Assembly (NCBI GenBank): GCA_038087875.1
Contig: CM075995.1
Location: 2,606,001 to 2,670,000, forward strand
DNA: 64,000 bases
Reading direction: 5' to 3'
DNA from: Malacoraja senta
Taxonomy: Eukaryota
Position numbers and translations under genes: made by a program. Below are positions 2,500-62,715 of the stretch, piece by piece; position 1 is the first letter of the stretch, and every line of letters begins with the position of its first letter. Under the pieces are notes generated by a model that searched no databases, was not told where the DNA came from, and was given only the letters and a program-made list of their open reading frames with translations.

Positions 2500-2697
2500 T
2501 AGACACCAAAAGCTGGAGTAACTCAGTGGGACAGGCAGCATCTTTGGGTGACGTTTCGGGTCGAGACCCTTCTTCAGTGGTTAGGGATAAGGGAAACGAG
2601 AGATATAGATGGTGATGGGGAGAGATGAATGAAAGATATGCAAAAAAAGCAACGATGATAAAGGAACCAGGCCATTGTAAGCTGTTTGTTGGGTGAT
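2500..2697 (-). mobile_element. Penelope-like terminal repeat fragment inserted into a CR1 3' end (2336-2765)
   Basis: The CR1 tail gatcagccatgatt resumes at about 2697 as ccatgattaaatggcgg. The insert carries the hammerhead-like core. Confidence 0.75.
2550..2577 (-). ncRNA. Minimal hammerhead-ribozyme-like motif, consensus copy
   Basis: Reverse complement reads CTGAAGA-A-GGGTC-TC-GACCC-GAAA-CGTC: CUGANGA box, 5-bp stem II, GAAA box, palindromic ACGU stem III, GUC triplet. Confidence 0.65.
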
Positions 2698-2875
2698 CCA
2701 TGATTAAATGGCGGAGTAGACTTGATGGACCGAATGGCCTAATTCTGCTCCTATCACTTATGAATTTATACAGCAAGGAATCCGGCCATTCGGCCCAACA
2801 GTTCATGCCAGTGTTTATGTTCCATTTGGACTTCATCCCATCCTTCTCATCTAAATGCATCAGAGTAAAGCATAG

Positions 2876-3180
2876 GGTGGCACAGTGTCATAGCTGGTGG
2901 AGCCGCTACCTCATCGCAAAGACCCGGGTTCAATCCTGAACTCGGATGCTATTCATGTGGAGTTTCCACATTCTCCCAGTGACCACGTTTCTTCACACAT
3001 GCCAAAGACTCGTGGGTTTGTAGGTTAATTGGCCTCAGTAAAATTGACCCTAATGTGTAAGGACTTGATGCGAATGTGGGATAACATAGAAAATGAGCAA
3101 ACCGGTGATCGATGATCGGTGTGGACTCGGTGGTCCGATGTGCCTGTTTTGATGCTGTATCTCTAAACAAAGCTAAACTG
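2876..3180 (+). mobile_element. HE1-like V-SINE, diverged
   Basis: gtggcacag..gggttcaatcc head, V-domain remnant, ctgtatctctaaac tail. Confidence 0.75.
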
Positions 3181-4041
3181 AGGTCTCTGAGTACTCGACC
3201 CGAAACGTCACCCATTGTGTATCTCCAGAGATGCTGCCTGCCCCGCTGAGTTACTCCAGCTTTTTGTGTATATCTTAAGTAACCCTCTGTTCCGTTTTCA
3301 CTTATTTTAATTCATAATATTTATTTCATAGATAAGTAACGTTTTGGGTCAGGACCTTTGTTCTGAAGAAGAGTCACAACCCGAAACATCACCTATCCAT
3401 GTTCTTCAGAAATGCTGCCTGACCCGCTGAGTTACTCCAGTACTTTGTGTCTTTTTTTGTCAGGTTTGATATGGGCTTAGTATAACTTCCAGAATTTGCA
3501 AATCCATTCCTCGAGCAATATATCCTAGTGTTTGGTTTAGTTTTCTTTATAGTTTTGCTAATGTCTGATGCTACCTTTTGTTATTAGTATTTTTGTGGTC
3601 AACTGATTCTATGACTGATCATATTGAATGAATACTTTATTGCCACAGTGAAATGCTTTGCTTGCATACCCAAGGTATGCAAATAGTCAGCTTCTGATTT
3701 TCTTTTTTGTGTTTTTGGAAGGAATTCTGTCCCTGATTTGTGTATTGGTCTTTATAACTTTTTTTTTTTTAAATTCTGATTATATGTTTCCTATAAATCT
3801 TTGTAAGGTGTCCTTGAAACCTCAGTATAAGGCGCCCGTAAATAAAATTCATTATTATTATTATTATTATAAAGAACCCCGGCACCAGGTCCCGCAGTTA
3901 CCAGAGGTCCTATTCTTTCTAGTTGTTCGTTCTTTCTTTTAGTAGGGATTATTTTTCCTACCTTGATGTCGAGATGATCGTTTAATAATTTCCTGGACAT
4001 GTTCTATCGCCCGTTTCAAATACAGGAATTACGTTGAAACA

Positions 4042-4260
4042 TAGAAACAAGGAACTGCAGATGCTGCTTTATACAAAATGACACAAATTGCTGGTGTAAC
4101 ACAGCGGGTCAGGCGGCATCTTTGGAGAACATAGAAGGGTAACGTTTCGTGTCGGTACCCCTCTTCAGTCTGAAGAAAGGTCCCGACGCAAAGCGTCACC
4201 TATCCATGTTGTCCAGAGATGCTGCCTGACCTGCTGAATTACTCCAGCAATTTGTGCTCT
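4042..4260. mobile_element. Fold-back (inverted) pair of Penelope-like terminal repeats
   Basis: The left arm (minus) and right arm (plus) meet at cttcagtctgaag, about 4163-4175. Confidence 0.75.
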
Positions 4261-6974
4261 AAAGGTGTAAAGTTAGATATTTGCCATATCTGTAGGATAC
4301 TACACTTTCTTCTAATGAAACACGTGTTACAGTTATGAAGCATTGCGCATGTAGAAATAACTGCAACGATGGTGGTTTTAATAGGATGGAAAACAGGAAC
4401 CAAGACTTTATTAGGCCAGACAAGCTGTTCAATTTTACTGCTAAATATATGAAGATCAATGCAAAGCAATAATTAATACTTTATGAAGGAACTTGAGCTG
4501 CAGAATTCTGCACAAAAGTACCTCCTCTGGGAACTCTGGAAACTCCACTGGTATATCACAGTGATTTGTGCTCATCATCTACAATGTACAAAACTACTAA
4601 GTCTGAACTGGTGCATTGATCTGAAGCAAACCAGCATGTGGTTCATAGCTTAATGTTTCCAAGTTAAGTCTATACTTCACTACACTACAGTTTGTTTAGT
4701 TGAGTTAGACGGCAGAGCGTGGTACCAGGTGTAGCCTCCGGCACCAGGCTTGGCTCACCCCCCATTTCCAAGTGTTCCCTGCTCCTACCTGAATAATGAA
4801 AGGCATAGATAGCGTGGATGTGGAGAGGATATTTCCACTGGGGGGAGAGTCTAGGACCAGAGGTCATAGTCTCAGAATTAAAGGGTGCTCTTTTAGAAAG
4901 GAGGTGAGGAGGGACCTCTTTAGTCAGAGGAATCTGTGGAACTCATCGCCACAGAGAGCTGTGGAGGCCAAGTCAGTGGGTATTTTTAAGGCAGAGATTT
5001 AACAGACAGAGCAGGTGTCAAGGGTTATGGGGAGAAGGTAGGAAAATGGGATTAGGAGGCAGAGATCAGTCATGATTGAATGGCGGAGTAGACTCAATGG
5101 GCCGAATGGCCTAATTGTCGGTGGAGGAAGTGACAACGAAGAGATACGAACAATGAAACCAGCAGGACGACTAGCGCGGGTGAGGGACAGAGAGAGCAGG
5201 AAAGCTGGGGTTACTTGAAATAAGAGAAATCAATATTTATACCACTGGGTTATATGATGTCCTAGCGAAATAGGAGGTGCTATGATTGTATTCATATATA
5301 GTCTTTTCTTTGACTAGATAGCATGCAAACAAAAGCTTTTCACCTCAGTACATGTGACAATAATAAACTAAACTAAACATCTGTGGATACTGTGGAAGAA
5401 AGGGACATGTTCACATTTGGTGTCTGTCCACTTAATTGGCTGCTGTCACTGACTGATGGTGATTACATATGAAGAGATTCCAATTTACATGGCACGAGGG
5501 AACTATAATTGAGGATGTGCGCTCCATAAAATTGCCTGCAGGAGGATACAAAGGGAGAAAGATAGCGACAAGTTCAATTGTAGTTTTTAGTCAAAGTGTG
5601 AGGGTCAGAAGCCATAGAGGCAAATCAAATCTGCTGGATAAATTAAGAACACAACATGCTGGAGTAACTCAGCGGATCAGGGAGCATCTCTGGAGAACAT
5701 GGATAGGTGACGTTTCAGGTCAGGATCTTTCTTCAGACTCAAAATAGATTAACTTGGACCATGCAATTCATAATCAGGATTTTAAGGGGCAGGATAATGT
5801 GGGGAGCATAAAACATAGAAAAATACACTACAGGAATTAAAGGACGTTCTTTTAGGAAGGAGATGAGGAGAAATTTATTTAGTCAGGGGGTGGTGAATCT
5901 GTGGAATTCTTTGCCACAGACGGCTGTGGAGGCTTTAGTAAGTGGATATTTTTAAGGCAGAGATAGATAGTTTCTTCATCAGTACAGGTGTCAGAGGTTA
6001 AAGGGAGAAGGCAGGCGAATGGGGTTAGGAGGGAGAGATAGATCAGCCATGATTGAAAGTCGGAGTAGACTTGTTGGTCCGAATGGCCTAATTCTACTCC
6101 TATCCCTTATGCTGAACAAGCTCTTTGGCCCACAATGTACATGCTGAACATGTTGTCTAGATAAATTAATCTCAAGTGTTTGCACATTACCCAATTCCCT
6201 CCACTCCCTGCATACCTACGTGCCAATCTAAAAGCCTCTTTATTAGCGCTATTGTATCTGCTTCCAACACCACCTTTGGCAAAATGTTCCAGGCACCCAC
6301 TACCGACTGTGTAAAACACTTGCCTCACACATCGCCTTTACATTTTGCCCCTCTGACCTTAAAGCAGTGATTTCTAGTCTTTGACACATCATTCAATGGG
6401 AAAAAGCTCGGTTCATAAGTTACAGGAGCAGAATTAGGCCATTTGGCCCATCCAGTCTAGTCCACCATTCCATCATGGCTGGTCTGACTTTCTCTCTTAA
6501 CCCCATTTTCCTGCCTTCTCCCCATAACCCTTGACACCAGCAGTAATCAATAACCACTAAAAAAGGTTCTGTGTCTACCCTATCATGATTTTATATACAT
6601 ATACCTCGCATTTTATGAGTGTTCGATTTATGTGTTTTTGTAAAAATGCGCTTGTTCCTTCAATACTACAGCTTGATTTATTTGCGGGTAATTTTGGAAT
6701 AACATGCTCGTACTGCTGATAGCATAGTCACATATATGTTTAATTTTTGTGTTTTTGAATTACACACTGCTCTTCGCGAGGTGCCTGTATCGTGTCTACC
6801 TTCAACCTCCAGGGTTCCAGAGAAAACAAATCTCAATTTGTCTAATCTCTCCATGTAGCTGATATCCTTAAATCCAGGAAAAAGGAAGAAAAAGGAATCT
6901 TCTTCACTGCACGCATTCATTAATAATGGGAAAGAAAGACACAAAATGTCTACACCCACAGAGTTGGGCACATT

Positions 6975-7850: not shown

Positions 7851-8811
7851 TCTGAGTGTAACTCAGAGATTTTCCACACAACCTACTAGTTTTGGCAAAC
7901 ACTCACAACAAAACTAGGCACACATCGAGAACCAGAGGACGTAGGTTTAACGTGAGGGGGGAAAGATTTAATAGGAACCTGAGGGTAATGTTTTCTCACA
8001 AAGGGTGGTGGGATGTATGGAATGGAGGAGGTAGTTGAGGCAGGTACCATCACAAAGTTTAAGAACAATTTGGACGGGTACATGGATAAGACAGGGTTTA
8101 CAGGGATGTGGGTCAAATGCAGGCAGGTGGGACTAGTGTAGATGGGACATGTTGGTCGGAGTGGGCAAGCTGGGCCAAAGGGTCTGTTTCCATGCTCTAT
8201 GACTCTATGACATCAGGCTTGGATGAGCAATGAAGTCCCGAATAACATGTGTTCACTCAGCTATTAACGTCTCGCCACAGCATCTGCCAGCCTCAATTTT
8301 CAATCCTCAGGAAATGTGAGACCACTTCACGGATTGCTCCAAATTGCCTGCAGCATTTTCTTTAAAATTACAACTCACTTCAGAGCTGCAAGCTGCACAT
8401 GGTTTCGGAACCAAGGCATACGTGGGTACTCAAAGGCACAAGAGACCGTAGTGCCTCCCTATCACTTTTATTGGACCTTTTATGATCCTTTAAGACTTTT
8501 CACACAGATCAGCACAGCGGAGTCAGAACAGTTGGAAGTTTTCCAAGCATTCTTTGTCAGGAACACACAGCTCCCATTTAAATGCATGACTCCCCATGCA
8601 AACTACCAGGCTGCACCCATTAACATATTTTTGGCCACTTGCATGAGTTTTTTTGCAAGGGGTTTGACTCAGCATTTGTGCCGTATGCAGCATGCACATA
8701 CACAAAGATGAAATCCAATTTTCTGGAGCTTGTTCCTTGGCAGAATAAATTCAAAGCCCATGAGCAGAAAATGCACACAATTAAGATAGAAACCACATAC
8801 TAAAAAAAGCC

Positions 8812-11070
8812 ATGTTTTTCAAAGGCGCCAGGCACCAATTTGCTGTGTGTCCCTGCGGTTCTAGATGGCATAACAGGGTCATTCGAGGAATCGTTCTAAA
8901 CTGCCAACTTTCAGAGGGCATGCTAATGTCTGCTTTGTGTTCTTTGCAAGAATGTAATAAAGATTTTTTTTTCCATTCTACTGTTCCAGTTCACCAATGG
9001 CTTATTAACAGACTCAAGAATAAGACGGTACATGAGCAGTGGTGTACGTTTAAGGATCTACTGTATAACCTTCAAGAAAAATTTATTCCTATGAAGAAAA
9101 AAAGGGGTAAGGGAAAGAACAGTCAGCCATGGCTCAGTAAAACTATAAAGGATAGTATTCGGCTGAAGGCAAGGGCATATAAGGTAGCTAGAGATAGTGG
9201 GAGGGTAGAGGATTGGGAAGCATTTAAAGGTCAGCAAAAAATAACTAAGAGATTAATTAAGACGGGGAAAATAGACTATGAAAGGAATTTAGCGAACAAC
9301 ATAAAAACTAATAGTAAGAGTTTTTATAGCTATATAAAAAGAAAAAGGGTGGCTAAGGTGAACGTTGGTCCATTGGAGGGTGAGACTGGAGAGTTGTTGG
9401 TGGGGAACATGGAAATGGCAAAGGCATTAAACGAGTATTTTGTATCAGTCTTCACCATAGAAGACACAAAAAATATTCCAACGCTGGATAAACAGGGGGC
9501 GGTAGGAATGGAGGAGCTAAATACTATTAAGATCACCAAGGAGGTGGTATTAGGGAAATTAATGAGACTGAAGGAGGATAAATCCCCTGGGCCTGATGGA
9601 TTACATCCAAGGGTCTTGAGGGAGATAGCGGTGGGGATTGTGGATGCATTGGTGATAATTTTCCAAAACTCCCTGGAGGCAGGAACGGTCCCAGTGGATT
9701 GGAAAATGGCCAATGTAACACCTATATTTAAAAAAGGAAGTAAACAGAAGGCGGGTAACTATAGACCGGTTAGTCTAACATCGGTGGTGGGTAAAATGTT
9801 AGAGACAATTATTAAAGAAACACTAACGGGGCACTTGGATAAACATGACTTCATCGGACAGAACCAGCATGGTTTTGTGAAGGGGAAGTCCTGTTTAACG
9901 AATCTGCTCGAATTCTTTGAGGAAGTAACAACCCGGGTGGATAAAGGGGAACCGGTGGATGTGGTATACTTGGACTTCCAAAAGGCTTTTGACAAGGTGC
10001 CACATAAGAGACTATTGCTAAAAATAAAAAATTATGGGATTGGGAGTAATATATTAGCATGGGTAGAGGATTGGCTAACAAATAGGAAACAGAGAGTGGG
10101 GATAAATGGTTCATACTCGGGATGGCAACCGGTAACTAGCGGGGTTCCGCAAGGGTCGGTGCTGGGACCCCAGTTGTTTACAATTTATATAAATGATTTG
10201 GAGGAGGGAACCAAGTGTAATATATCAAAATTTGCGGACGATACAAAAATGGGAGGAAAAGTAGGGGATGAGGAGGATAGGAAGAGTCTGCAAAAGGATA
10301 TAGATAAGCTAGGTGAGTGGGCAACAACTTGGCAGATGAAATTTAATACTAATAAATGTGAAGTCATTCACTTTGGGAAAAAAAATGATAGGGCAAGTTA
10401 TTTTCTAAATGAGGTGGAGCTGCGTTGTAATGCAACGCAAAGGGATCTAGGGGTAGTAGTACATGAATCACTAAAAGTTAGTATGCAGGTGCAGCAAGCA
10501 ATCAGGAAGGCCAATGGAGTTTTGGCCTTTATTGCTAGGGGGATTGAGTATAAAAACACGGAGGTCTTGCTGCAGCTGTACACAGTATTAGTGAGACCAC
10601 ATTTGGAATACTGTGTACAGTTCTGGGGTCCATACTTAAGAAAGGATGTACTGGCCCTGGAGGCAGTGCAGCGAAGGTTTACAAGATTAATTCCTGCAAT
10701 GAGGGGATTGACATATGAGGAAAGGTTAAGTAGGCTGGAACTCTACTCTTTGGAGTTTAGAAGAATGAGAGGCGATCTCATTGAAACATATAAGATCGTG
10801 AGGGGCCTTGATCGGGTGGATGCACCGAGGATGTTCCCAATGATCGGGGAAACTAGAACTAGGGGACATAGTTGTAGAATAAGAGGGGGCTCTTTTAAAA
10901 CTGAGATGAGGAAGAACTTCTTCACCCAGAGGGTGGTTAATTTATGGAATTCACTGCCCCAGGGAGCAGTGGAAGCAGAAACATTAAATATATTTAAATC
11001 TAAAATAGATGTTTTTTTAGCTGCCAAGGGGATAAGGGGCTACGGGGAGAGGGCAGGGATATGGACCTAG
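8812..11070 (+). CDS. CR1 ORF2 reverse transcriptase, lacking the APE endonuclease (first ~60 codons are probably flanking DNA)
   Basis: Motifs KSPGPDG, NYRPVSLTS, QHGF, YLDFQKAFDKV, GVPQGSVLGP, FADD, VRPHLEY, FFTQRVVNLWNSLP. Confidence 0.9.
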   Translation: MFFKGARHQFAVCPCGSRWHNRVIRGIVLNCQLSEGMLMSALCSLQECNKDFFFHSTVPVHQWLINRLKNKTVHEQWCTFKDLLYNLQEKFIPMKKKRGKGKNSQPWLSKTIKDSIRLKARAYKVARDSGRVEDWEAFKGQQKITKRLIKTGKIDYERNLANNIKTNSKSFYSYIKRKRVAKVNVGPLEGETGELLVGNMEMAKALNEYFVSVFTIEDTKNIPTLDKQGAVGMEELNTIKITKEVVLGKLMRLKEDKSPGPDGLHPRVLREIAVGIVDALVIIFQNSLEAGTVPVDWKMANVTPIFKKGSKQKAGNYRPVSLTSVVGKMLETIIKETLTGHLDKHDFIGQNQHGFVKGKSCLTNLLEFFEEVTTRVDKGEPVDVVYLDFQKAFDKVPHKRLLLKIKNYGIGSNILAWVEDWLTNRKQRVGINGSYSGWQPVTSGVPQGSVLGPQLFTIYINDLEEGTKCNISKFADDTKMGGKVGDEEDRKSLQKDIDKLGEWATTWQMKFNTNKCEVIHFGKKNDRASYFLNEVELRCNATQRDLGVVVHESLKVSMQVQQAIRKANGVLAFIARGIEYKNTEVLLQLYTVLVRPHLEYCVQFWGPYLRKDVLALEAVQRRFTRLIPAMRGLTYEERLSRLELYSLEFRRMRGDLIETYKIVRGLDRVDAPRMFPMIGETRTRGHSCRIRGGSFKTEMRKNFFTQRVVNLWNSLPQGAVEAETLNIFKSKIDVFLAAKGIRGYGERAGIWT

Positions 11071-13570: not shown

Positions 13571-14141
13571 CAGCATTGATTGAGTGTGGCATCAAGCAGC
13601 CTTGGTACAATGAAATCCAATGGGAACCAACTCATGCTCAAATGGTGAGAGTCATCACCTGCACAAAGATTCACTGCAGAATGTATTCATTTGTTGATTT
13701 TTATCAAACAACACACTTAATCCAGTTAAAATATGCACTGAAATAGAGCACATTATGTTAATAGGATTCTAACAAAGAGAATTCTGTCATGGGTTCTACA
13801 ATTGGTCATTACCGAAGAGTGAATTTTCAGACAGTGAATATCAAGTGGTATCACCTTTTACATTGGATGCATATATAAAAGCATTCCTGATAAGCACAGC
13901 AATGGTTAGCAAGCATGCTGACAATTGGGTTGCAGTAGTGGGTGAGGCGAGGCAAGGACAGCTGCTTTCTCTTTTCATGGCAAGTCATTTTAATGAGCAA
14001 AATCAAAACATGCTTGCATCTATAGATTGCACCATTCGTTAATGCCAGGACCTGCTGAGATTCCAACATGGAAGTCTCAGTCTCCAAAATGCTGGAGTAA
14101 CTCAGCGGGACAGGCAGCATCTCTGGAGAGAAGGAATGGTT

Positions 14142-14169
14142 GACGTTTCGGGTCGAGACCCTTCTTCAG
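14142..14169 (-). ncRNA. Minimal hammerhead-ribozyme-like motif, consensus copy within PLE repeat 14085-14300
   Basis: Exact reverse complement of CTGAAGAAGGGTCTCGACCCGAAACGTC. Confidence 0.65.
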
Positions 14170-14439
14170 ACTGAGAGTCAGGAGAGAGGGAGTCTAGAGG
14201 TCTAGCAGGGTAAGGTGTGAAAACGACAGATCAAATTGTATGATGATAAGGAAATGTAGAATGGTAAACCAGCAACTGCAGTTCCTTCCTACAAAAACCA
14301 GCATCAACAGTTCCTTCCAGCCCAATAAGCTGGTGCGATCTATCACAGGTTGCCCAGCTGTCCCAGAAGGAAAGCTGCTGCTGAATCCGTGATTGTTTAA
14401 CCAAGAATTTCCACTCAAAGAATTAGTCTGAAGAAGTGC

Positions 14440-15681: not shown

Positions 15682-16489
15682 TAAAGCTTCTGTTACGTGC
15701 TAACCAGTCAGCGGAAGGACAATACATGATTACAATCAAACTGTTCACAGTGCACAGATACACAATAAAGGGAATGATGTGAATTACGTTTGGTGCAAGA
15801 TATAACCAGAAAAGTCCGTACAAAGATAGCCCGAGGGTCTCCAATGAGGCAGATAGTAGTTCAGCGCTGTTCTCTGGTTGTTGGAAGGATGGTTCAGTTG
15901 CCTGAATACAGCTGGGAAGAAATTGTTGCTGAGTCTGGAGGTGTGCGTTTTCACACTTCACCGGTGTGCTGTTATCACTTATTTTTAAAGTTAGTTTCAA
16001 TGATTTTAATTGATTTGTAGATAGACACAAAAAGCTGGAGTGAATCTCTGGAGAAGGAATGGGTGATGTTTCGGGTCGAGACTCTTCTTCAGACTGGATA
16101 GGGAAAAGGGAAACGAGAGATATACGCGGTGATGTGGAGAGATAAAGAATAATGAATGAAATATATGCAAAAAAGTAACGATGATAATGGAAAGAGGCCA
16201 TTGTTAGCTGTTTATGTGTAAGAAGGATCTGCAGATGCTGATTTAAACCGAAGATAGACACAAAAAGCTGGAGTAACTCTGGAGAGAAGGAATGTGTCTA
16301 AAGAAGGGTCTCGACCCGAAACGTCACCCATTACTTCTCTCCATAGATGCTGCTCCTGCTCAGTTAATCCAGCTTTTTGTGACAGCTTCATTGTTAGCTG
16401 TTTGTTGGGTGAAAACGAGAAGCTGGTGCGACTTGGGTGGGGGAGGGATAGAGAGAGAGGGAATGTCGGAGCTACCTAAAGTTAAATAA

Positions 16490-16680
16490 ATCAATATTCA
16501 TACCAATGGGCTGTAAGCTGCCCAAGCGAAATATGAGATGCTATTCCTCCAATTTGTGATTAGCCTCACCTAGGACAGAAAGGTCTGTGTGAGAATGGGA
16601 AGCAGAATTAAAGTGTTTAGCAACCGGGCGATCAGGTAGGTTCAGGCGGACTGAGCGAAGGTGTTCAGCGAAACGATCAT
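16490..16680 (-). pseudogene. Penelope-like GIY-YIG endonuclease C-terminal remnant
   Basis: DRFAEHLRSVRLNLPDRPVAKHFNSASHSHTDLSVLG, matching the copy at 37529-37801. Confidence 0.8.
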
Positions 16681-16956
16681 TTGTAGATGTGCTCTGAACT
16701 AGACAGAACAAGAGATGCGTGTGTGTGTGTGAGACCATTTATTGGTATATCTGACCAAGTGTAAACACAGTTAAGCCATGATGCCAGAAATCCCTGCAAG
16801 TGAACTGGTCAAGGAATAAAAGCTCTTGATCGACACAAGGTGCTGTAGTAGCTTAGCGGGTCAGGCAGCATCTCTGGAGAAAAGGAGCAGGTGACGTTTG
16901 TTGGAACCAGTAACCCTTCTTCAGATTGAGAGTCAGGGGGAGGGAAACAAGGGAGG

Positions 16957-17321
16957 GGTTGCGATGCTAGTTGAAGGTGGTTGCCGGAGGTTGCAGGTAG
17001 TGGAAGGTAAGACCACAACCTCCGGGTAGACCACAACTACCTGCAACCTCCGGCAACCACCTGCAACCTCCGGCAACCACCTTCAACTAGCATCGCAACC
17101 GGCTTCGACTAAAAAATTACCGATTTTTAAAATGGCAACCTATTTTTAGTCGCGGCCAGTTTTGAATTTTTTGAAATAATCACCGGAACATAGAAGAAGT
17201 GGAAACCACTTTCGACCATTAGGGAGACTGACAAAAACCTCCGGGAACCGCACGGAAACCTTGGGTGGGGCGCAAAGTCTCCAGAGGTTTCCGTTCAGGT
17301 TTCCTAAGTGGGACAGGGTCA
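16957..17321. mobile_element. Truncated Harbinger-type MITE with an internal palindrome
   Basis: Right end CCTAAGTGGGACAGGG followed by TTA; perfect 42-bp inverted arms at 16957-16998 and 17059-17100; left TIR absent. Confidence 0.65.
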
Positions 17322-40937: not shown

Positions 40938-40973
40938 GTCGTTGCCATAGTTACCCACCATGCTTAATCTTCT

Positions 40974-40984
40974 AAGGGGAAGGA
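40974..40984 (+). promoter_or_regulatory. Polypurine tract
   Basis: AAGGGGAAGGA immediately before the 3' LTR. Confidence 0.85.
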
Positions 40985-47200: not shown

Positions 47201-49357
47201 TCTTTGCAAGAAGACATCCCCCTTCCTACCTAAATCATCGCTAACAATATGGACCCTGGTCTCTGCTTGCTCACCCTCCCCTCTCAGAATATCATGTGCT
47301 CTGTTGGAGATTCCTTGACCCTGGCACCAGGAGTGTAACACATCACCCTGGAGTCTCACTGGCAACCACAGATATACTTGTCCGCATTGCGGACTATAAA
47401 GTCCGGTATCACTATTGCTTGCCTAAATGTAGCCCTCCCTTGGTGTTGCCAGGACCCGAAGGACTGAGCTATAAGGAGTCTGAAGAAGGGTCTCGACCCG
47501 GAAAGTCACCTATTCCTTTTCTTCAGAGATGCTGCCTGAGCCGCTGAGTTACTCCATGTTTTGTGTCTATCATCGAGCTTTCAGGAGAGGTTGAGCAGGC
47601 TCGGGCTTTATTCCTTGGGGCGCAGGAGGATGAGGGGTGATCTTATCGAGGTGTACAGAATCGAGAGAGGTAGAGATCACTGAGTCTTTTGCCCGGCGTC
47701 GGGGAATCCAGAACCAAGGGACCTAGGTTTAAACTGTAGACCAATAACATAACTTGGCACTAAGAAGGGGGGGGGGGGGGGGGTGGGGGGGGGGGGGAAC
47801 GCTCACATGTACTGGATTAAAAAAAATAAAATCTATTTTTTACTCGTAAATTCAGTCGTCAAGTGTTAACACAGGATGAACGCGATCAAGAGAAATGCAA
47901 ATATGTAATCTGGTGCCCATAACCATATCAAGATAATTGGATAATAACGCCATTTTGCTGTCCTTTTTTAAAAGGTGCTGTTCGATCACAATTCAAAATC
48001 CAGATGTTTCTTTGTACAGATGTGCTCCAGCAGAGTGGTGCAAGGAACACGTGGTTCCTATGTTGCTTTACGGCCCGACCTAAAAAATTACCCATTTATT
48101 TCCGAAATCAACCCAAAGCATTTGCTGGCTATAACGCTTCATTCCTGCTTTTGCCTCCACTTGGAAATTTGCTGCACTTTCGTATCGACTTACCTTATGG
48201 GGAGAAGGCGGGAGAATGGCGTGATGGGCCGAGTGGCCTAATTTTGCTCATGGAACTGATGAATTTACTTTTATCTTGCCGTTGGAAGACAGTCAGTTTA
48301 AGGGGGAGAAAAATACACAAAGTGCTGGAGTAACTCAGTGGGCCAGGCAGCATCTCTGGAGGACATGGGATCGGTGACGTTTCGGTTCGGAACCCTTCTT
48401 CAGTCTGAATAGATTCAGATCGGAATAGATTGAAACTTCGGTTCAAAGGTTCAAAGACACCTTCGTGTCTTTTTTTTCCTAAACTAGCATCTACAGTTCC
48501 TTGCATCTCTAGTCATTTTAAAGAGGGTTTTTTTTCTGCAAGGGCGAGGGAAAGTGTAAAGTTTGTTATTTCAAGATTGCACCCACGTCGCATTTTTTGG
48601 CTAAATTGCCCCATAAAGGAAAGGATTAAGCAGACTTTGGAACAATTTTGTCAGCGACAATCCATTATCAACTTCCCTCTTCTTCCCCCAACCCAGTATC
48701 AACTGAGATCACATTTGAAGGAAGCAACTGCAGATGCTGGTTTATACCGAAGATGGACGCAAAAAGCTGGAGTAACTCAGCGGGTCAGACAGCGTCACCG
48801 GAGAAAAGTTAAGACGGGTGATGTTTCGGGTCGGAGCCCTTCTTCAGTCTGAATAGATTCAGATCAGAATAGATTCAAACTTATACCACCGACGTGATTG
48901 ATGATTTGGGCGCAGGTCGGTAAGGTTCCAAGCTTACGATGTAGATGGTAGACACACGATGCTGGAGTAACTCAGCGGGACAGGCAGCATCTCTGGCGAG
49001 AAGGAATGGATGATGTTTCTGGTCGAGACCCTTCTTCTGACTGCGATATAGATAACGGGCTGCGAGTATTTGTACGTGCGTAAGGATTGTAAATTATTAC
49101 TCCATCAAAACACAGACAACGGTATGAATATTGACTTCTCTAACTTCGTAACACCTGCTTTCCCCCTCTCTCCATCCCTCCCCCTTCCCAGTTCTCCGAC
49201 CAGTCTGACTGTCCCCTGATTACATTATATCTCTGTTAGCGTTGTTGTCATCATCTCCTTGCTAACAATGATCTATGCTACATTTGCCTTGATCATCATC
49301 ACTTTTGATCGCTTACACTTCCTTATCTCTGTAACTCCCTCTCCCCTGACTCTCAGT

Positions 49358-49385
49358 CTGAAGAAGGGTTTCGACCCGAAACGTC
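49358..49385 (+). ncRNA. Minimal hammerhead-ribozyme-like motif within PLE repeat 49120-49680
   Basis: CTGAAGAAGGGTTTCGACCCGAAACGTC, located just 3' of the GIY-YIG ORF end (ggtatgaatattgacttctctaacttc). Confidence 0.65.
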
Positions 49386-51146
49386 ACCCATTCCTTCTAT
49401 CCAGAGATGCTGTTAGTCCCGCCGAGTTACACAAGCAATTTAGAAACCGAAACATAGAAAATAAGTGCAGGAGTAGGCAATTCGGCCCTTTGAGCCAGCA
49501 CTGCCATTCAATATGATGGCTCAAAGGGCCGAATATCAATATCATGGCTGATCATCCAAAATCAGTACCCCATTCCTGCTTTTTCACAATATCCCTTGAT
49601 TCCTTTAACCCTAAGACCTAAATGTAACTCTCTTGAAAACTACTCCAGCATTTTGTGCCCATCTTCGGTGTAAACCAACATAGAATCATAGAGTGATACA
49701 GTGTGGAAACAGGCCCTTTAGCCCAACTTGCCCACACCGGCCAACATGTCCCAGCTACACTTGTCCCACCTGCCCACGCTTGCTCCATATACCTCCAAAC
49801 CTGTCCTATCCATGGACCTGTCTAACTGTTTCTTAAATGTTGGGATATTCGCAGCCTCAACTACCTCCTCTGGCAAATACCCACCACCCTTTGTGTGAAA
49901 AAGTTACCCCTTAGATTCCTATTAAATCTTTTCCCCTTCATCTTGAACCTATGTCCTCTGGTCCTTGATTCCCCTACTCTGGGCAAGAGACTCTGTGCAT
50001 CTACCCGATCTATTCCTCTCATGCATTTGCAGTTCTTTCCTGCAGATAGTTGGTTCCTAACTCCAGGCGTCAGTTCATAAAGTTTTGGGGTTTCTTCATA
50101 CGGGTACTGATAACACACAAGTCAATCTGCAGCAAGATAGCGAGACACAGACTGCATTGAATAAAAAATTTAGCCGGATTAGAGGGGGAAGCAAAGGCCT
50201 TGTTATGTAGGGTCTCAGAAAAAAAAGACTTAAGAGCTGAACAAATACATTCAATATTTATGTGAACTGCAGATGCTGGTTTACACCGAAGATAGACACA
50301 GAATGCTGGAGTAACTCAACGGGACAGACAGAACCACTGGAGAGAAGGAATAGGCGACGTTTCGGGTCAAGACCCTTCTTCAGACTGAGAGTCAGGGGAG
50401 AGGGAGATGCAGAGATAAGGAGGTGTAAGGTGTGAAAACGAGACATCAAGGGGGATGGGGGTTAAAGAGAAATATAGAATTGTTAGCTAGGAATAATTAC
50501 TCTAGAATACAATGTTATATTCCTTCATCAACACAAATACATATTAGACATTGCACAAATACATGTTGGAGATTTGGGATATAGAGCACTGGATTCACTC
50601 ATCGGGTCAGTCAGCATCTCTGGGGAACTTAGATAGATGTCTACAGATGGATCCCGACCCGAAACGTCACTGTCCTTGAGATGCTGCCTGACCCGTTGAA
50701 TTACTCCAGCACCTTGTGTCCTTTTATATAAACCAGCATCTGCAGTTCCTTGTTTCTGGGAAATGGGACTCTAGTTTCATTAGAGTTGGGTGAAGTGGGG
50801 TTAGAGGCGAAGCATGCGGAGGACATAACATTGACAAAGATTCTGCATAAAAGTACCCAATGACCTTGGACTCTCCGGCATTGGCATTACGTTCATGAAT
50901 TAAGAAGTCATTTGCAAATAATTTGTGCAGCAGGGCAGTTATGGACAATTCAACATCACCTAACTAGTTGAAAAAAGGGCGTGATGTACACCACAGCAAA
51001 TCAGAGCAGTTTACTCAGAAAACAGAAACTATTTAAAGAACACAAGAATTAGAAACTACGCTAACTTCTTCCAAAAAAACCCCGTAAATGTATGTGCTCT
51101 GGATGAAAAAAAACATGCATTGAAAGAGTAGATCACTTATTCACTG

Positions 51147-51350
51147 TGTAGGAAGGAACTGCAGATGCTGGTTTAAACCAAAGATAGACCCAATATGCTG
51201 GAGTAACTCAGCGGGGCAGGCAGCATCTCTGGATAGAAGGAATGGGTGACGTTTCGGGTCAAGACCCTTGACCCCAATCATCACCCATTACTTCTACCCA
51301 GAGATGCAGCCTGTCCCGTTTAGTTACTCCAGCATATTGGGTCTATCTTC
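51147..51350. mobile_element. Fold-back pair of Penelope-like terminal repeats
   Basis: Arms aagatagacccaatatgctggagtaact / agttactccagcatattgggtctatctt. Confidence 0.8.
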
Positions 51351-53080
51351 AACTAAACTAAAGATATTTATTGAAAGTAACTAGGGTGTTTGACGAATTA
51401 AAGCAAACACATGAAAGGCTCTCTGATGGACTGCTCTCTGTAGCACCTTGTTCCAGGTCGTGCAAATACTTTTCTAATGCCTTCCCACCTGGGACACTTT
51501 CTCACAGTCCCCATCTGATCTTAATACCATAAGACACAGGAGCAGAATTAGGCCATTTGGTCCATCAAGCCTGCTTCACCATTCAATCATGGCTGATCTA
51601 TTTTTCCTTCTCAACCCCATGCTCCTGCCTTCCACCTTTAACCTTTGAAGCCCTTAATAATCAAGAACCTATCAATCTCCACTTTAAAAATGCCCAATGT
51701 TGTGGGCCTCCACAGCCGTCTGTGGCAATGAATCCCACAGATTCACCATCCTGTGGATAAAGAAATTCCTCCTCACCTCCATTGTGAATGTACATCCTTT
51801 TATTTTGAGGCTGTGCCCTCTGGTCCTAGACTCTCCCACTACTGGAAACATCTTCTCCACATCCACTCTTCCTTTCTTCCTCAACAAGCTCCAGCTTGCT
51901 TGTTTGCACCGACCAGCGATCCCCGCACACTAATCATTTTTTTTACATTTATACCAAGCCAATTAAGCTACAAACCAGTACGTCTTTGGAGTTGTGGGAG
52001 AAAAACGAAGATCTCAGAGAAAACCCACGCAGGTCACGGGGAGAACGTACAAACTCGGTACAGACAGCACCCGTAGTCAAGATCGAACCCGGGTCTCCTA
52101 CGCTGCAGGCGCTGTAAGGCAGCAACTCTACCACTGCGCCGCCATGCCACCCTGTGTATCTGAGAGTCGCAGCTTCCGATATTAATCCAACCCATTTCTA
52201 CCAGTGTTTAGTTTAGTTTAGTTTGTCCCGTGTACCGAGGTACAGTGTAAAGCTTTTGTTGTGTACTAACCAGTCAGCGGAAAGACCATACATGATTACT
52301 ATCGAGCCATTCACAGTGTACAGATACACGAGAAACGGAAATAAGGTTTACAGTTTACAGTTTAGTTTATTGTCACTTGTGCCGAGGTACGGTGAAAAGA
52401 TTTTGTTTTTGTTGCGCGCTATCCAGTCAGCGGAAAGACAATGGCATAATTTAGTGCAAGATAAAGCCTGTAGAGACCGCTCAAAAACGGAATCCTGTGT
52501 TGAGAGTGTAAGATCTGTGGAGCCATTGGCAACATCATCTCACAACTGCACTAGCTCATATTTAATGATCGCATACTTGAAATTGATGAAAAAGGAAAAC
52601 ATGATTTAACACCTAAAAGCACCATGTTACATCTCCAACTGTGAAACTGTTGCAAAACGTATTGATCTCCTTTGTAGGTCAGTGTTAAAGAACTTCAGAG
52701 CTTCACAACTTCATGTTCCTGTGCAGCTGAAAAATTGGTATTGACCAGACAATGTGGGAGTGGGGATATTAACTGATGATTCCAAATTCAAGAGTGTTTT
52801 CTTGTCATATGTCCCAGATAGAACAATGAAATTCTTACCTGCCTAAGCACAGCAGAGTATGTAAACAAACGTACACAGTAAACAACATAATAAATGAGAG
52901 GAAAAAAAATTCAGTGTGAGTATACAGTATATACACATACTCACAAATAGACATATATATATAGATCATATATATATACGTACACATACGTACACACACA
53001 CACATTCTACAATGCTCAATTCCATTCAGAAAGGAAACAGTTAGGCCATGACAGCAGATAGCAAGATCTAAATAATATTT

Positions 53081-53385: not shown

Positions 53386-54300
53386 CTTTCTGATGAATGC
53401 ATCTCAGCCTAGTACGGCAACTGTTCTGCTCTTGACTGCCTGAACCTACAGAGAGTGGTGGACGTCACAGGCTCATCACTTTTTAAAATCCAGTCCATCA
53501 CATCAGGAAGGCTGGAAGAATCGCCAGGAGTGCTTCTTATCGTGGCCATCCCCTTTGCTCCCTTCTATCTTCTGAAGGAAGGTGCATGAGATCGAAAGGC
53601 TTGGACCTGCAGACTGAAGAACAGCTCTTCCCCACTGGTATCACACGCCTGACCCAAACACCTCTTTCCATCCCCTTCTCGGAGTTGCTTCTTCTTCTTT
53701 TCGTGTCCATCTTGTTACAAATGTTGGCCTCGCTGTCATCGTCCGTCCTGAAAAGTACGCAAGCTTCCGGCGACAATCAGTGGAAGCCATCACTTGTTGC
53801 AATAGATGATGGTGATAGCAGAATTAGCTCAGGATACTTCCAGTTTCCAGCCCCGGGATGTGGACGCTTCTGTTATGGTGCCCCCGGAGATGCTGCCACA
53901 TACTCTTACACTTAACTCTACGTTATTCAATTATTCCGCTATTGTACAGATTGCATTACACGACTGTGATTATCATATTGATCATTACTGCCTGTATACT
54001 GTTTAGTCTGTGAGCTTCATGTGAACAGACAATTTAATTGCCCCTCGGTGTATATGACAATATACTAAAGATAAGACACAAAACGCTGGAGTAACACAAC
54101 GGGGCAGGCAGCATCACTGGAGCAAAGGAATAGGTGACGTTTCGGGTCAGAACCCATCTTCAGACTTCTTCAGTCCGACTTCCCGGTCCAGAACATTGCC
54201 TATCCATGTCCTCTTGAAATGCTGCCAGTCCCGCAAAGTTACTCCAGCACTTAGTGTCTTTTTTCAGTATAAACCAGCATCTGCAGTTCTTTTCTGCACA

Positions 54301-55623
<1,323 letters not shown>

Positions 55624-58295: not shown

Positions 58296-59090
58296 AGGTA
58301 GCAAAAACAGGAAGGCAGATTACTATCTAAATGGCGTCAAGTTGGGAAAAGGGGAAGTACAACGGGATCTGGCGGTCCTTGTACATCAGTCTATGAAAGT
58401 AAGCATGCAGGTACAGCAGGCAGTGAAGAAAGCGAATGGCATGTTGGCCTTTATAACAAGAGGAATCAAATATAGGAGCAAAGAGGTCCTTCTGCAGTTG
58501 TACAGAGCCCCAGTGAGACCACACCTGGAGTATTGTGTGCAGTTTTGGTCACCTAATTTGCGGAAGGACATTCTTGCTATTGAGGGAGTGCAGCGTAGGT
58601 TTACAAGGTTAATTCCCGGGATGGCGGGACTGTCATATGCTGAGAGAATGGAGCAGCTGGGCTTGTACACTCTGGAGTTTAGAAGGATGAGAGGGCATCT
58701 CATTGAAACATGTGAGATTGTTAAGGGCTTGGACACGCTAGAGGCAGGAAACATGTTCCCGATGTTGGGGGAGTCCAGAGCCAGGGGCCACAGTTTAAGA
58801 ATAAGGTGTAAGCCATTTAGAACGGAGACGAGGAAACACCTTTTCTCACAGAGTGGTGAGTCTGTGGAATTCTCTGCCTCAGAGGGCGGTGGAGGCAGGT
58901 TCTCTGGATGCTTTCAAGAGAGAGCTAGATAGGGCTCTTAAAAATAGCGGAGTCAGGGGATATGGGGAGAAGGCAGGAACGGGGTACTGATTGGGGATGA
59001 TCAGCCATGATCACCTCGAATGGCGGTGCTGGCTCGAAGGGCCAAATGGCCTACTCATGCACCTATTGTCTATTGTCTATTGTCTATTGC
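58296..59090 (+). mobile_element. Young CR1 3' fragment
   Basis: ORF 58246-58932 (KKANGMLAFI..VRPHLEY); (CTATTGT)n tail. Confidence 0.92.
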
Positions 59091-62000
59091 TACTTGTGAC
59101 AAAGAGTGAAAACAATTGTATTGAATTTTTCTAACATCACTATTTCTATGCTACATTTAGTTTCATTTAGTTTAGAGGTACGGCAAGGAAAGTGGCCCTT
59201 CGGCCCGCCGATTCCGCACCGACCAGCGATCCCCGCACATTAACGCTATCCTACACACACTAAGGACAATTTCCATTTACACCAGGCCAATTAACCTACA
59301 AACCTGTACGCCTTTGGAGTGTGGGAGGAAACCAAAGATCTCGGGAGAAAACCCACGCAGGTAACGGGGAGAACGTACAAACTCCGTACAGACAATCACC
59401 CGTAGTCAGGATCGAACTCGGGTCTTTGGCGCTGTAAGGCAGCAACTCTACCATTGTGCCACCATGTTGGAGATTGGAAGACATCAACTGATCTGAGAAG
59501 CACAACAGAAGTTTAGATTATTAGATCTTTACAACAATGCTAGCTACTTGTAACTAAATTCTACCACATTCAACTATGGGAAATATGAAACTCAAACATG
59601 CTTAGAAGTATCAGGTAAAGGGGATATAGTTGAGAAGAATAAAATTCAAGGAACTATCCATGAGCAAAAGATTCAATCGATTTTTCATTATTGTGTGTGC
59701 GGCATAACCTTCTTTGGGTTATGGTCTGAGTGCAGGTAGATGGGACTAGGGGGAAGTAAGCAGAAAGAAGGATTTTTTTTTTTTTTTAAGTCTTCGGCAC
59801 GGACTTGAAGGGCCGAGATGGCCTGTTTCCATGCTGTAATGGTTATATGGTTATATGGTTATATGGAAAGTAAAAAGGCTAAATCATAACCTGGGCAGCA
59901 AGACTGTTCTGCTTGCTGTGAATTGGATTAAATATCTTATCAAGGATGAAGAACGTAAGTTAGTTCAGCCTTTGTGACATTTAGCTTAGTTTATTTAATA
60001 GGAAAGGACGCAAAGTATGTAGGAAGGAACTGCAGATGCTGGTTTACACCAAAGATACCACACAAAATGCCGGAGTAAATCAGCGGGTCAGGCAGCATCT
60101 CTGGAGAAAAGGAATGGATGACATTTCAGGTCGAGTCCCTTCTTCAGACTGAGAGTCGGGAGATTGGGAAATTAGTGGTATGAAATACATACATAGTGGT
60201 ACAGAATACATCAGAGCAGCACTTATGAACAAGTAATGGTGGAGCCCATAATAGTCCATTGTTGGCTGTGGAAGAGGTAATAACAAAGGTATATGAGGAT
60301 GGGAGAGGGACGGATAGAGTGGGAATGCAACTCCGAAGAAGGATCTCGACCCGAAACATCACTTGCCCATGTTCTCCAGAGATGCTGCCTGACCTGCTGA
60401 GTTACTCCACCACTTTGTGTCCTTTTATGTATTTACCAGCATCCGCAGTTCTTTGTTTCTACCTCTTTATTCAACAGGATTGGTTTGGCAGGTAGTTTGG
60501 CATTCAACAGTCAGGGTCACACACCTCCAGTTCCCTGTCTTAGCTGCCTTAGCTGTGAATTCAGCCTCCTTCCAAAAACTGGGCACTTAGATGTCATTTC
60601 AGGCACCCACTGAAAGATTCCTGCATTTTCCCAGGATCTGTGCTTCAGTTGGGGCTAATAAATAGGAATGCCATCGGTATTGTGTAGGAAGGAACTGCAG
60701 ATGCTGAAGTCTGAAGAAGGGTCTCGACCTGAAACGTCACCCATTCCTTTTCTCCAGAGATGGTGTCTGACCCGCTGAGTAATGCCATCTGTATTCCTGG
60801 GGCGGGTATTTCAAGCTTAAAAAATCTCAAGATAAAAAGGAAACTCGTTATTCAACTAAGGCAGGAGCTTGGTGCCCTAACATCCCTAGTTTGCCCAGAA
60901 ACACAGATAGGATAGAACATACATAAGATCAGTCTGAAGAAGGCTCGACCCAAAACGTCACCCATTCTTTCTCTCCAGAGATGCTGCCTGACCCGCTGAG
61001 CTACTCCAGCATTTTGTGACCATCTTCGGTTTGAACCAGCATCTGTAGTTCCTTCCTACACATAGATAAGAGGCAACTAATCTTGTTTTTTTTATAAAGG
61101 ATTTAATGTGTGTATGCATTGAATACTTGTGCAAATACACAGTGCACTTCAAAGTAATTCCTGGTAGACAAAGAAATTGGGATAATTAGCATGGCAAATA
61201 CCAATATACCTTTTATTTTGAGCCAGGAAAAAATAATTTATGTAGTTCCCAAATAATGGGTGAAGGCAAAATGTCACAGGATTTTTTACCTTCATCATCT
61301 ACTTTTTTTCGTATCTTTCATTCATTGTTCTATGTCTCTCTACACCATCGTCCATATCTCTCGTTTCCCTTTCCCCTGACTTTCTGTCTGCAGAAGGGTC
61401 TCGACCCGAAACATCACCCATTCCTTCTCTCCAGAGATGCTGCCTGGCCCACTGAGTTACACCAGTTGTTTGTGTCTATCTACAGGATTTTTTAGTTTAG
61501 TTAAGTTTATTGTCACCTGTACCGAGGTGCAGCAAAAAGCTTTTGTTGCATGCTAACCAGTCAGCGGAAAGACAATACATGATTACAATCGAGCCATCCG
61601 CAGTGTACAGATACATGAGCATACGTTATATTTAACCTCTTGAATCAATACTATATTCTACCCATTGATTCGAACTAAATTCACCAAAGGAAATACATTT
61701 TGTCATTAAGGATAAAGTGAAGGTAATAATGATTCTTCGACTTGTATATTCGTAACTGCTTTGTGACTTTGCAATGAACACAGGATTCGACACACGCTTC
61801 CAGCAATTTAGAGCTTAAAAATATGTATTTTTAAAATAAAATGAGGTGACACATATTTACTATTCCAATGTAGTATCAAAATAGCCATAAAATAAAAATG
61901 AAATTAAGATTTGTGAAAAAACATTATTTGTTAGTGTTAGAACTGCACATTGAAGTTTTCAAATCATGAGAAAGACACAAGGCTAGTGTTATTCAGCAGG

Positions 62001-62715
62001 CTGGGACTCTTCTTCAGAGCAACGGGAGAAGATCTCATAGAACTGCCGTCGGATGGAGAAGGTCAACTTCTTCAAAGCAGGCAAGTCTTGAAGAGATTTC
62101 GCAGTGAAGCTGTCAAGATGTAGTAACAAGGAACTGCAGATGCCGGATTCATATGAGTAGATGCTTGATGATGAGTGGAGATGCAATGAGCCAAAGATGG
62201 ACACAAAATGTGGCCCAGGCAGCATCTCTGGAGAAAGGGAATTAGGAATTAGTCTGAAGAAAGGTCTCGACCCAAAGCGCCACCTATTCCTTTTCTCCAG
62301 AGATGCTGCCTGAGCCGCTGAGTTACTCCAGCATTTTGTGTCCATCTTTGGCCCATTGCATCTCCACCCACCATTCATACAAATCCCAATTTAATGTCCA
62401 CATTCCCATGAACTTCTCCGCCCATCTGCACAGCAAGAGCATCTATTTTATACAAAGGGTGGCGGGTATATGGAATGGGCTACCAGAGGAGATAGTTGAG
62501 GCAGGTACGATCACAACATTTATAAAACCTTTGGACAGGTACATGGATGGGATAGGTTTAGAGAGATATAGTGCCAAATGCAGGCAGGTGGAACTGGTGT
62601 ACATGGGGCATCTTGTTTGGCTTGGGCAAGTTGGGCCGAAAGGCCTGTTTCCATGCTGTATGACTCGATGCCTCTCAGTCAACTAACCAGCCAACCTGCA
62701 TGTCTTTGAGATATA

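Follow-up and report, generated by a model that had tools for sequence, protein, structure and literature searches.

Penelope-type minimal hammerhead motifs as probable old, decaying element ends in a 64,000-nt window of skate-like DNA

Introduction

The closest described relatives of the motif studied here are the minimal hammerhead ribozymes (min-HHRs) of metazoan Penelope-like elements (PLEs), reported in 2014 (Cervera and De la Pena 2014, PMC4209133). Like these, the motif has a CUGANGA box followed by an extra nucleotide, a stem II closed by a G-C pair, a GAAA box, a palindromic C-G at 15.2/16.2 and a UC cleavage triplet; its site is 3' of a GIY-YIG open reading frame (ORF), and it occurs mostly as solitary copies from truncated PLEs, with some close opposite-strand pairs. 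It differs in its helices. Helix I has 2 bp, the short extreme of the published 2–6 bp, and stem II has 4–5 bp with a loop of 2–4 nt. In the part of the published collection available to us, no cartilaginous fish is found among the motifs. The function of the hammerhead in endonuclease-positive PLEs was termed unclear in a 2021 study (Craig et al. 2021, PMC8557442). For an Anolis PLE, insertion in vitro is reported not to require cleavage, and no RNA ends were detected at the site (PMC11167929).

A second comparison is offered by the insertions of endonuclease-positive (EN+) PLEs. In the reports on Adineta Penelope (PMC3846280), on the elements of Craig et al. (2021, PMC8557442) and on Anolis Poseidon PAc (PMC11167929), these elements resemble the copies described here in their 5' truncation, their head-to-head inverted partial pseudo-LTRs (pLTRs) with a palindromic junction, an optional 30–40-bp tail on one arm, occasional target duplications and reverse transcription start sites ~60–100 nt 3' of the hammerhead cut. 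The Anolis report accounts for the inverted 5'-truncated layout and the tail by two start sites of reverse transcription. As far as these descriptions extend, our copies are unlike EN+ PLEs in that many insertions consist of two arms only (117–240 bp) and that arms lacking the UTR share a fixed 5' base; target duplications are 12–15 bp here, compared with 8–10 bp in Adineta.

Animal non-LTR retrozymes (PMC7229834; bioRxiv 10.64898/2026.07.22.740005) are also short, non-coding, pLTR-related repeats with a type I hammerhead. They form tandem arrays of 150–450-bp units, typically with canonical hammerheads and with circular RNA, whereas our copies form no arrays, carry a minimal hammerhead and have mainly inverted neighbours. 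Among titles and abstracts, outside Repbase, Dfam and most subscription journals, we found no prior description of PLE hammerheads in cartilaginous fish or of short PLE end-products.

Herein, we analyse a 64,000-nt stretch of DNA from a skate-like host (the window). We consider it likely that the motif is a minimal type I hammerhead in the pLTR of EN+ PLEs, probably Neptune-type, and that its copies are dead 3'-end transposition products of several such subfamilies. The motif type is already known and is represented here by old, decaying end-fragments; the only unusual point is a start base, just ahead of the ribozyme, that numerous fragments have in common. The window thus provides a cartilaginous-fish example, at high local density, for a class described in 2014.

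Copies of the motif in the window

A scan permitting 8 mismatches gave 33 matches at ≤7 mismatches in the 64,000-nt window and 0 in 5 mononucleotide shuffles; the preliminary description had counted ~35 copies by eye. At ≤3 mismatches there were 19 matches, compared with 0 in 100 dinucleotide shuffles. The two copies reported as exact (2550–2577 and 14142–14169, both on the minus strand) were verified, as were three near-exact ones with a single mismatch each (49358–49385, plus; 50356–50383, minus; 60711–60738, plus). A profile search recovered 62 fragments of a ~135-nt unit within the window; the 61 that were aligned total 5,803 bp, or 9.1% of the window, and 38 of them include the CUGA end. 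If the local density of ~0.6 cores per kb held genome-wide, it would lie far above the 9,000 copies reported for Xenopus. When four contig sets were mapped, summed depth, which does not equal copy number, reached millions over the unit compared with tens over unique flank. Exact-pattern scans of metagenome, viral and prokaryote collections returned 0 further loci. When four longer copies were folded, their z-scores were 1.3, -3.0, 1.3 and 1.0, and thus pointed to no consistent structure across the whole unit.

Linkage to GIY-YIG ORFs

Four copies are linked to an ORF (motifs at 37391, 49358, 16065 and 37818), of which those at 16065 and 37818 had been overlooked. The order of parts is GIY-YIG ORF end, pyrimidine-rich UTR (77–206 nt), hammerhead and tail. 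The preliminary description had placed the other two motifs just 3' of a GIY-YIG ORF end; this holds at 37391, where a ~94-codon piece ends 94 nt upstream, while at 49358 only the last ~10 codons are present, 206 nt upstream. The 37391 copy is a 5'-truncated PLE on the minus strand (37326–37804) comprising the GIY-YIG piece (37526–37804), the UTR, a motif with a broken palindrome (37391–37418) and a short tail. Its upstream tandem partner (37805–37969, minus) has an ORF end, a 77-nt UTR and a motif carrying G5A (37818–37845), 427 nt from the first motif; the rest of the partner's GIY-YIG piece lies at 41188–41340 (minus), split off by an LTR-element insertion. Another 5'-truncated copy on the minus strand (16016–16678) retains a GIY-YIG end (16478–16678), a ~190-nt UTR, a motif (16065–16092) and a short tail. 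The 49358 copy (49118–49441, plus) has an intact motif with a 2-bp helix I, and its tail is broken by another repeat and continues at 49641–49681.

The window's GIY-YIG piece matches the Pfam GIY-YIG family at E=5e-4, which is under the curated cut-off. Its homologues are found at E=3e-37; identity is 77% with predicted skate proteins and 59% with a shark protein that has reverse transcriptase-type motifs upstream. Such motifs were recognized by eye in relative P0003, where a Pfam reverse transcriptase match is absent. The window holds no Penelope reverse transcriptase and no full-length element, all ORF-linked copies being truncated, and clade assignment is therefore drawn from relatives only. 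The CX2-5CxxC linker motif ahead of the endonuclease, common to Neptune and Nematis, is not contained in the window pieces; it was seen by eye in two relatives (P0002 and P0005). The relatives of the ORF end are probably Neptune-type.

Structure of the insertions

Among 30 neighbour pairs ≤350 nt apart, 16 were head-to-head and 4 tail-to-tail (p=0.012). The 3' ends are bimodal: they cluster ~63 nt and ~103 nt beyond the cleavage site, a separation of ~40 nt. In each run, the long 3' end recurs in 258–2,382 contigs whose flanks are unrelated (agreement 0.34–0.35). One long and one short arm were combined in 10/16 pairs overall (p=0.21) and in 8/10 abutting pairs (p=0.05), a rule whose significance is post hoc only. 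Target duplications of 12–15 bp occurred at 3 of 20 boundaries tested, compared with 2 of 149 random pairs; the absence of a convincing duplication at the other 17 counts against the explanation we favour. Past 7 long-tail ends there was no AT enrichment (58% vs 55%), and no empty-site joint was present among the 15 joints listed. Some insertions are common to organisms C and E, with flank divergence of ~5–7%.

The three duplications flank paired arms. A nested head-to-head two-arm insertion of 174 bp (16214–16387) has a perfect 15-bp duplication, and one of its arms starts at about the cleavage site; a two-arm insertion of 117 bp (60677–60793, motif 60711–60738) has one of 15 bp with one mismatch; and a head-to-head structure at 17713–18151, with an internal 76-nt duplication and arms that lack CUGA, has one of 12 bp with one mismatch. 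Further head-to-head pairs are centred on 4169 (4036–4259; long-tail arm minus, short-tail arm plus, core in both), and lie at 42932–43145 (one long and one short arm), 50579–50765 (minus arm beginning roughly at the cleavage site; 50479–50699 is covered by a contig of organism C), 51138–51353 (joined within stem II, its long-tail end at 51145 being a family-wide 3' end) and 54061–54300 (motif 54136–54163 intact). In the pair at 60013–60463 (motifs 60120 and 60333), the arms are separated by ~180 nt of UTR-like sequence. Two are decayed: one at 3328–3458, with arms at 3338–3365 (minus) and 3363–3390 (plus), and one at 62119–62355, whose decayed motif lies at 62254–62281 and whose minus arm, on an uncertain reading, starts near the cleavage site.

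The further copies described here lie on the minus strand, and several carry UTR sequence. The exact motif at 2550–2577 has ~110 nt of UTR upstream and a 13-nt tail deletion. The exact motif at 14142–14169 lies with its UTR in a copy at 14078–14293, whose low end was set by eye, and an inverted 30-nt tail piece (14264–14293) stands ahead of them. Long tails are found in the copies at 26434–26570 (motif 26543–26570, full long tail, ~80 nt of UTR) and 50252–50383 (motif 50356–50383, intact, 2-bp helix I, ~130 nt of UTR). Three same-strand copies occupy 48311–49044 (minus; motifs 48376, 48820 and 49012), and only the first retains core and palindrome.

The inverted pairs, the two 3' ends and the target duplications are the known PLE signature of an inverted repeat plus tail. 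By analogy with the biochemistry of the Anolis PLE, the PLE protein would nick both target strands, reverse transcription would be primed at two sites within the RNA, both 3' of the ribozyme, and the cDNAs, most of them stopping early, would be joined head-to-head or inserted singly. Priming 3' of the ribozyme and early stops together would mean that all insertions start with the tail and that most contain the ribozyme. The ribozyme may be selected in source elements only, where its cleavage would be weak and would proceed in a dimer or with the aid of protein; individual genomic copies, which show decay after insertion, would be mostly inert.

The 5' edge of copies lacking the UTR

The UTR is missing from 22 of 38 core-bearing copies, and these have in common a sharply defined 5' edge, which lies three bases ahead of CUGA. 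An A stands at base -3 in 13/15 of these copies, and base -4 is C in 2/15 compared with 14/16 UTR-bearing copies (p=5e-5; p=9e-4 with 7 fold-back copies retained), the two classes having been split post hoc by pyrimidine content. Approximately three arms start at the cleavage site (p=0.07). An extra 5' G, as a cap signature, was present in 5/15 copies and is uninformative. The Drosophila intron ends at helix I, which suggests a 3' splice site as another source of the edge; this is less likely, because the copies retain the AG and have no common upstream exon. The edge is not predicted by random 5' truncation and counts against the favoured explanation.

Copies lacking the UTR, and the arms that start at the cleavage site, may be short cDNAs extending to a natural or cleaved 5' end of the RNA. 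Less firmly than the priming scheme above, the copies lacking the UTR would be cDNAs that reached an RNA 5' end located three bases ahead of CUGA. The initiator consensus is YYANWYY, and the edge site fits it. We raise, as a tentative and rather doubtful idea, that the short copies are a fossil record of PLE RNA 5' ends, most of them marking a transcript start that lies three bases ahead of the core and a minority ending at the GUC cleavage site, linked to their partner arm via the helix I dinucleotide. A transcript start there would also account for the limit of 2 bp on helix I. If the idea is true, the skate copies would be the first in vivo evidence of a PLE hammerhead cutting its transposition template, and template cleavage could be counted from a genome assembly alone, given the very many skate copies. 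The abundance of the family allows a cheap genome-wide count of copy start positions: a pile-up at GUC would show in vivo use of cleaved RNA, and its absence would argue against such use.

The sharp edge also favours a non-autonomous family, SINE-like or a solo retrozyme of 95–135 nt that begins three bases before CUGA, has its own masters and uses the PLE enzyme in trans. The preliminary description had proposed a ribozyme-bearing SINE or retrozyme family; in favour of this view stands the short-copy class with its defined 5' end, a feature confined to the copies lacking the UTR. Defined 3' ends, the 117- and 174-bp two-arm insertions with their own target duplications, and a 2026 preprint that derives vertebrate retrozymes from pLTRs and reports many monomers (bioRxiv 10.64898/2026.07.22.740005) point the same way. 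However, the two classes intermix on the copy tree (9 label changes vs 10.5 when shuffled, with 101/500 shuffles as low), a tree of 92 columns that is poorly resolved and has no well-supported branch. Two-arm junctions differ in position from one pair to the next, and the pairs therefore do not go back to a single master. A tRNA-derived head is absent (0 tRNA genes, no Rfam match at gathering level), and no B-box has a fixed place (4 scattered matches to the usual pattern at unrelated offsets in 61 fragments). The window holds no tandem arrays of the unit except a two-copy, 76-nt internal duplication without CUGA, no run of two or more adjacent units with complete hammerheads, and no canonical 6-bp helix I with loop-loop contacts. 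The SINE or retrozyme reading is further disfavoured by boxes not significantly better kept than the tail, by the small share of intact cores and by the insertions common to related organisms. We regard a non-autonomous family as unlikely.

Hammerhead architecture and decay

The proposal that the motif is a minimal type I hammerhead of the Penelope type, whose stem III is palindromic and of the dimer kind, was supported. The motif agrees with the published consensus (Fig. S3, PMC4209133) at every catalytic position, in the extra nucleotide, in the G10.1-C11.1 pair and in the palindromic 15.2/16.2; the A after CUGAAGA, earlier listed as a defect, belongs to this consensus. A 1-nt insertion between A9 and G10.1 was required by 8/8 descriptor matches. 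The CUGANGA and GAAA boxes are present with a UH cleavage triplet, G10.1-C11.1 is G-C in 28/40 rows, and the consensus at 15.2-16.2 is CG, where an intermolecular 4-bp stem is computed to add ~-3 kcal/mol beyond two stems II. A stem I of ~2 bp had been claimed, and helix I is indeed 2 bp: position 1 pairs in 24/29 copies, position 2 in 27/29 and position 3 in 1/29. In the two exact copies helix I is lost, with 0 bp at 2550 and 1 bp at 14142.

Median divergence among copies is 12.5%. Non-CpG mismatches affect 17/336 core positions (5.1%) compared with 75/1004 in the tail (7.5%; p=0.14), and 43/581 when core and stem II are combined (p=1.0); CpG mismatches number 42/242. The core is free of mutation in 16/37 copies, compared with 33% expected (p=0.13). 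The core is nominally, not significantly, better kept than the tail, so weak selection may still act. As the sequence half of a refutation, the preliminary description had named a lack of excess conservation in the boxes or in stem II pairing relative to the rest of the repeat; no significant excess was found.

That the genomic copies are functional self-cleaving ribozymes under selection, for example cutting host transcripts or freeing circular RNAs between neighbours, would suit the 10/37 formally intact cores, the 18 same-strand pairs within 1.2 kb and the nominally lower mismatch rate of the core. It is nevertheless very improbable, given the conservation result and the state of the helices. 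Two-sided changes in stem II occur in 4 of ~40 rows, all close relatives and two of them duplicating one locus, whereas changes that break a pair are numerous. Once 25 nt of tail are included, the probability of stem II drops to ≤0.13 in 7/8 near-intact copies, in many cases through pairing of the tail with the CUGAAGA box. Few positions of the motif are as decayed as the palindrome CpG, and both members of the only true PLE tandem are damaged (37818 and 37391). For published PLE min-HHRs, cleavage is poor even in dimeric form, and 8/9 Xenopus dimers stayed uncleaved.

A chance or degenerate look-alike that is no hammerhead, suggested by the short helix I, the lack of stem II covariation here and the absence of any Rfam hammerhead model matching the window at E≤5, is scarcely credible against the consensus agreement at all catalytic positions, the location behind a PLE ORF, as expected, five published PLE hammerheads with a 2-bp helix I (PMC4209133) and 8 descriptor matches in the window compared with 0.13 on average over 30 simulated sequences.

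A recurring hammerhead-like motif

At up to 3 mismatches, the 28-nt motif had 19 matches in the window, compared with 0 in 100 dinucleotide shuffles. Relaxing the threshold to 7 mismatches gave 33 matches, against 0 in 5 base shuffles, in agreement with the roughly 35 copies counted by eye in the preliminary description. A profile built from 29 motif copies recovered 62 fragments of the ~135-nt unit, in which the motif is followed by a tail. The aligned fragments (n=61) occupied 9.1% of the window, and the CUGA end was present in 38 of them. A structural descriptor that did not depend on the exact sequence identified 8 motifs in the window, every one from this family, compared with an average of 0.13 across 30 simulated sequences. 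An Rfam search of the window returned no model matching the motif. An assembly gap of 200 N lies at 42096-42295.

The consensus given in PMC4209133 for minimal hammerheads of Penelope-like elements (PLEs) comprises CUGANGA, one extra base, a G-C-closed stem II, GAAA, a palindromic N-N and UH; the motif in the window is an exact match to it. The extra A, first regarded as a caveat, ceases to be one, since that source counts the extra base among the conserved features. The short helix I, estimated at about 2 bp, was confirmed: two positions were pairable in 24/29 and 27/29 copies, and the third in 1/29. A helix I of 2 bp is described there for Culex, three Drosophila species and Oikopleura. The same account presents the motifs as mostly single, tied to truncated PLEs and occasionally found in close opposite-strand pairs; in the part available, no cartilaginous fish is among the published motifs. 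Judged by sequence, position and architecture, the feature is a set of minimal hammerheads of PLE pseudo-LTRs (pLTRs) within transposition debris, with putative cleavage activity.

The parent element

Four motif copies in the window lie 3' of the end of a GIY-YIG endonuclease ORF, from which they are separated by a pyrimidine-rich UTR of about 190 nt (copy 16065), 94 nt (37391), 77 nt (37818) or 206 nt (49358). The placement originally reported for 37391 and 49358 stands. As these UTR lengths differ, the window contains at least three PLE subfamilies. The GIY-YIG piece at 37529-37804 shared 77% and 76% identity with two predicted skate proteins and 59% with a shark protein (9 matches among 40 candidates), which points to a skate-like host. 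By eye, its protein relatives contain RT-type motifs and a CX2-5CxxC linker, the latter given in the consulted portion of PMC8557442 as a mark of Neptune or Nematis PLEs. The window yielded no Penelope RT. Its single true PLE tandem consists of motifs 37818 and 37391, separated by 427 nt, and both motifs are damaged.

On the minus strand at 5217-5291, a Penelope ORF end with about 110 nt of UTR is interrupted by another repeat and has no adjoining hammerhead. In P0003, the shark relative, the gene model runs on into the pLTR, and the last ~20 residues align with the translated motif; read from the protein only, this end points to a motif variant with CUGAUGA and a stem II that differs.

Insertion architecture

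Among 30 pairs of neighbouring fragments no more than 350 nt apart, 16 were head-to-head, 4 tail-to-tail and 10 direct, the excess of head-to-head over tail-to-tail pairs being significant (p=0.012). The 3' ends of the units were bimodal: one group lay around profile position 100, about 63 nt beyond the cleavage site, and the other around position 139, about 103 nt beyond it. The longer of these ends is shared across the family: at 51145, 258-2,382 contigs per run, over four runs, diverged from the stretch into unrelated flanks. Head-to-head pairs combined a long arm with a short one in 10/16 cases (p=0.21); among abutting pairs, a post hoc subset, this held for 8/10, with no long-long pair (p=0.05). 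Target duplications of 12-15 bp were seen at 3/20 boundaries tested, compared with 2/149 random pairs, the clearest flanking a 174-bp two-arm insertion nested within the UTR of copy 16065.

The PLE layout outlined in the available text of PMC3846280 and PMC8557442 is an inverted copy truncated at its 5' end, which may also have a tail of 30-40 bp. For Anolis, the account in PMC11167929 ascribes the tail to RT starting at two internal sites, both strands of the target being extended. The copies in the window may have been made in the same way, from two internal RT start sites and with extension of both target strands.

Hairpins with 7-8-bp arms, formed by an inverted core start, lie directly 5' of three copies (25880-25900, 48404-48438 and 48848-48882). 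The latter two have 35 nt in common at 94%, a likeness that suggests fold-back at the cDNA end. A local inverted duplication (16741-16958 and 18069-18281; 87% over 221 nt) holds a decayed motif with its tail, together with about 140 nt of flanking sequence unique within the window.

A fixed 5' edge

The core-bearing copies (n=38) were divided by the proportion of pyrimidines in the 40 nt upstream, a criterion chosen post hoc, into 16 with a UTR and 22 without. Seven fold-back copies, in which the upstream bases are the other arm, were set aside from the latter, leaving 15. In 13/15 of these, base -3 was A, while base -4 was C in 2/15, compared with 14/16 UTR copies (p=5e-5, or 9e-4 when all 22 are kept). 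UTR-less copies thus begin at a single base, three before CUGA.

Our preferred reading is that this base is the 5' end of the RNA, reached by short tail-primed cDNAs. Alternatively, the edge could arise from RT stalling at the ribozyme, from annealing at a short quasi-palindrome around the start base, or as a splice-related end. The RNA-5'-end reading is favoured because the site three bases before CUGA fits an initiator consensus, and because a start there would leave helix I only three bases. Also in its favour, PLE promoters are located in the pLTR, according to the part of PMC2377424 consulted.

Among 19 arms whose start, judged by eye, lies inside the unit, three have it at the cleavage site (p=0.07): 16293, 50639 and, with less certainty, 62242. 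Each is joined via the helix I dinucleotide, and microhomology alone could account for such joints. These starts amount to a testable hint rather than a result. A search of titles and abstracts for short PLE end-products gave no relevant earlier description.

Conservation, age and folding

Conservation was evaluated in 31 copies spanning core and tail, with non-CpG and CpG mismatches counted apart. At non-CpG positions the catalytic boxes had 17/336 mismatches, stem II 26/245 and the tail 75/1004; CpG positions had 42/242. The preliminary description had asked about excess conservation of the boxes and stem II, and none was significant relative to the tail (p=0.14 for the core, p=1.0 for core plus stem II), the true core excess being smaller if anything, since motif-based ascertainment favours the core. 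Cores without catalytic change numbered 16/37 (33% expected, p=0.13), and 10/37 were formally intact. Two-sided changes in stem II occurred in 4 rows, two being duplicates of one locus.

Median divergence from the window consensus was 12.5%. Contigs from two comparison organisms, C and E, cover several insertions together with unique flank at about 5-7% difference, which indicates that those insertions are old. With 25 nt of tail added, the predicted probability of stem II fell to at most 0.13 in 7/8 near-intact copies, and its loss in the predicted folds often involved tail pairing with the CUGAAGA box.

The proposal that most copies form a SINE or retrozyme family was not upheld. Retrozymes are defined, in the portions consulted of PMC7229834 and bioRxiv 10.64898/2026.07.22.740005, as tandem arrays with complete hammerheads; the window contains no such array, and no tRNA head was found in its unit. 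In a tree of 33 copies with no well-supported branch, UTR-less and UTR-bearing labels were unclustered (9 changes compared with 10.5 when shuffled).

Other repeats in the window

A Ty3/Gypsy-type LTR element (37970-41187, +) has inserted into a Penelope copy, within its GIY-YIG gene piece. The element's 203-nt LTRs have 2 differing sites, and it carries a 5-bp target duplication, PBS, PPT, and RNase H and integrase domains. It gave no RT match and thus appears young and internally deleted. A 761-aa open frame at 8785-11070 (+) matches the RT domain Pfam RVT_1 (E=1e-33); by its appearance we take it to be a CR1/L2-type LINE, and numerous shorter fragments of it are scattered through the window. 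A further LINE ORF is represented at 380-1006 (+) by its 3' end, which carries a zf-RVT domain, and a Tc1/mariner-type transposase fragment (HTH_Tnp_Tc3_2) lies at 63073-63679 (+). A near-perfect long inverted repeat of 10-nt units at 16976-17087 was the source of spurious microRNA matches.
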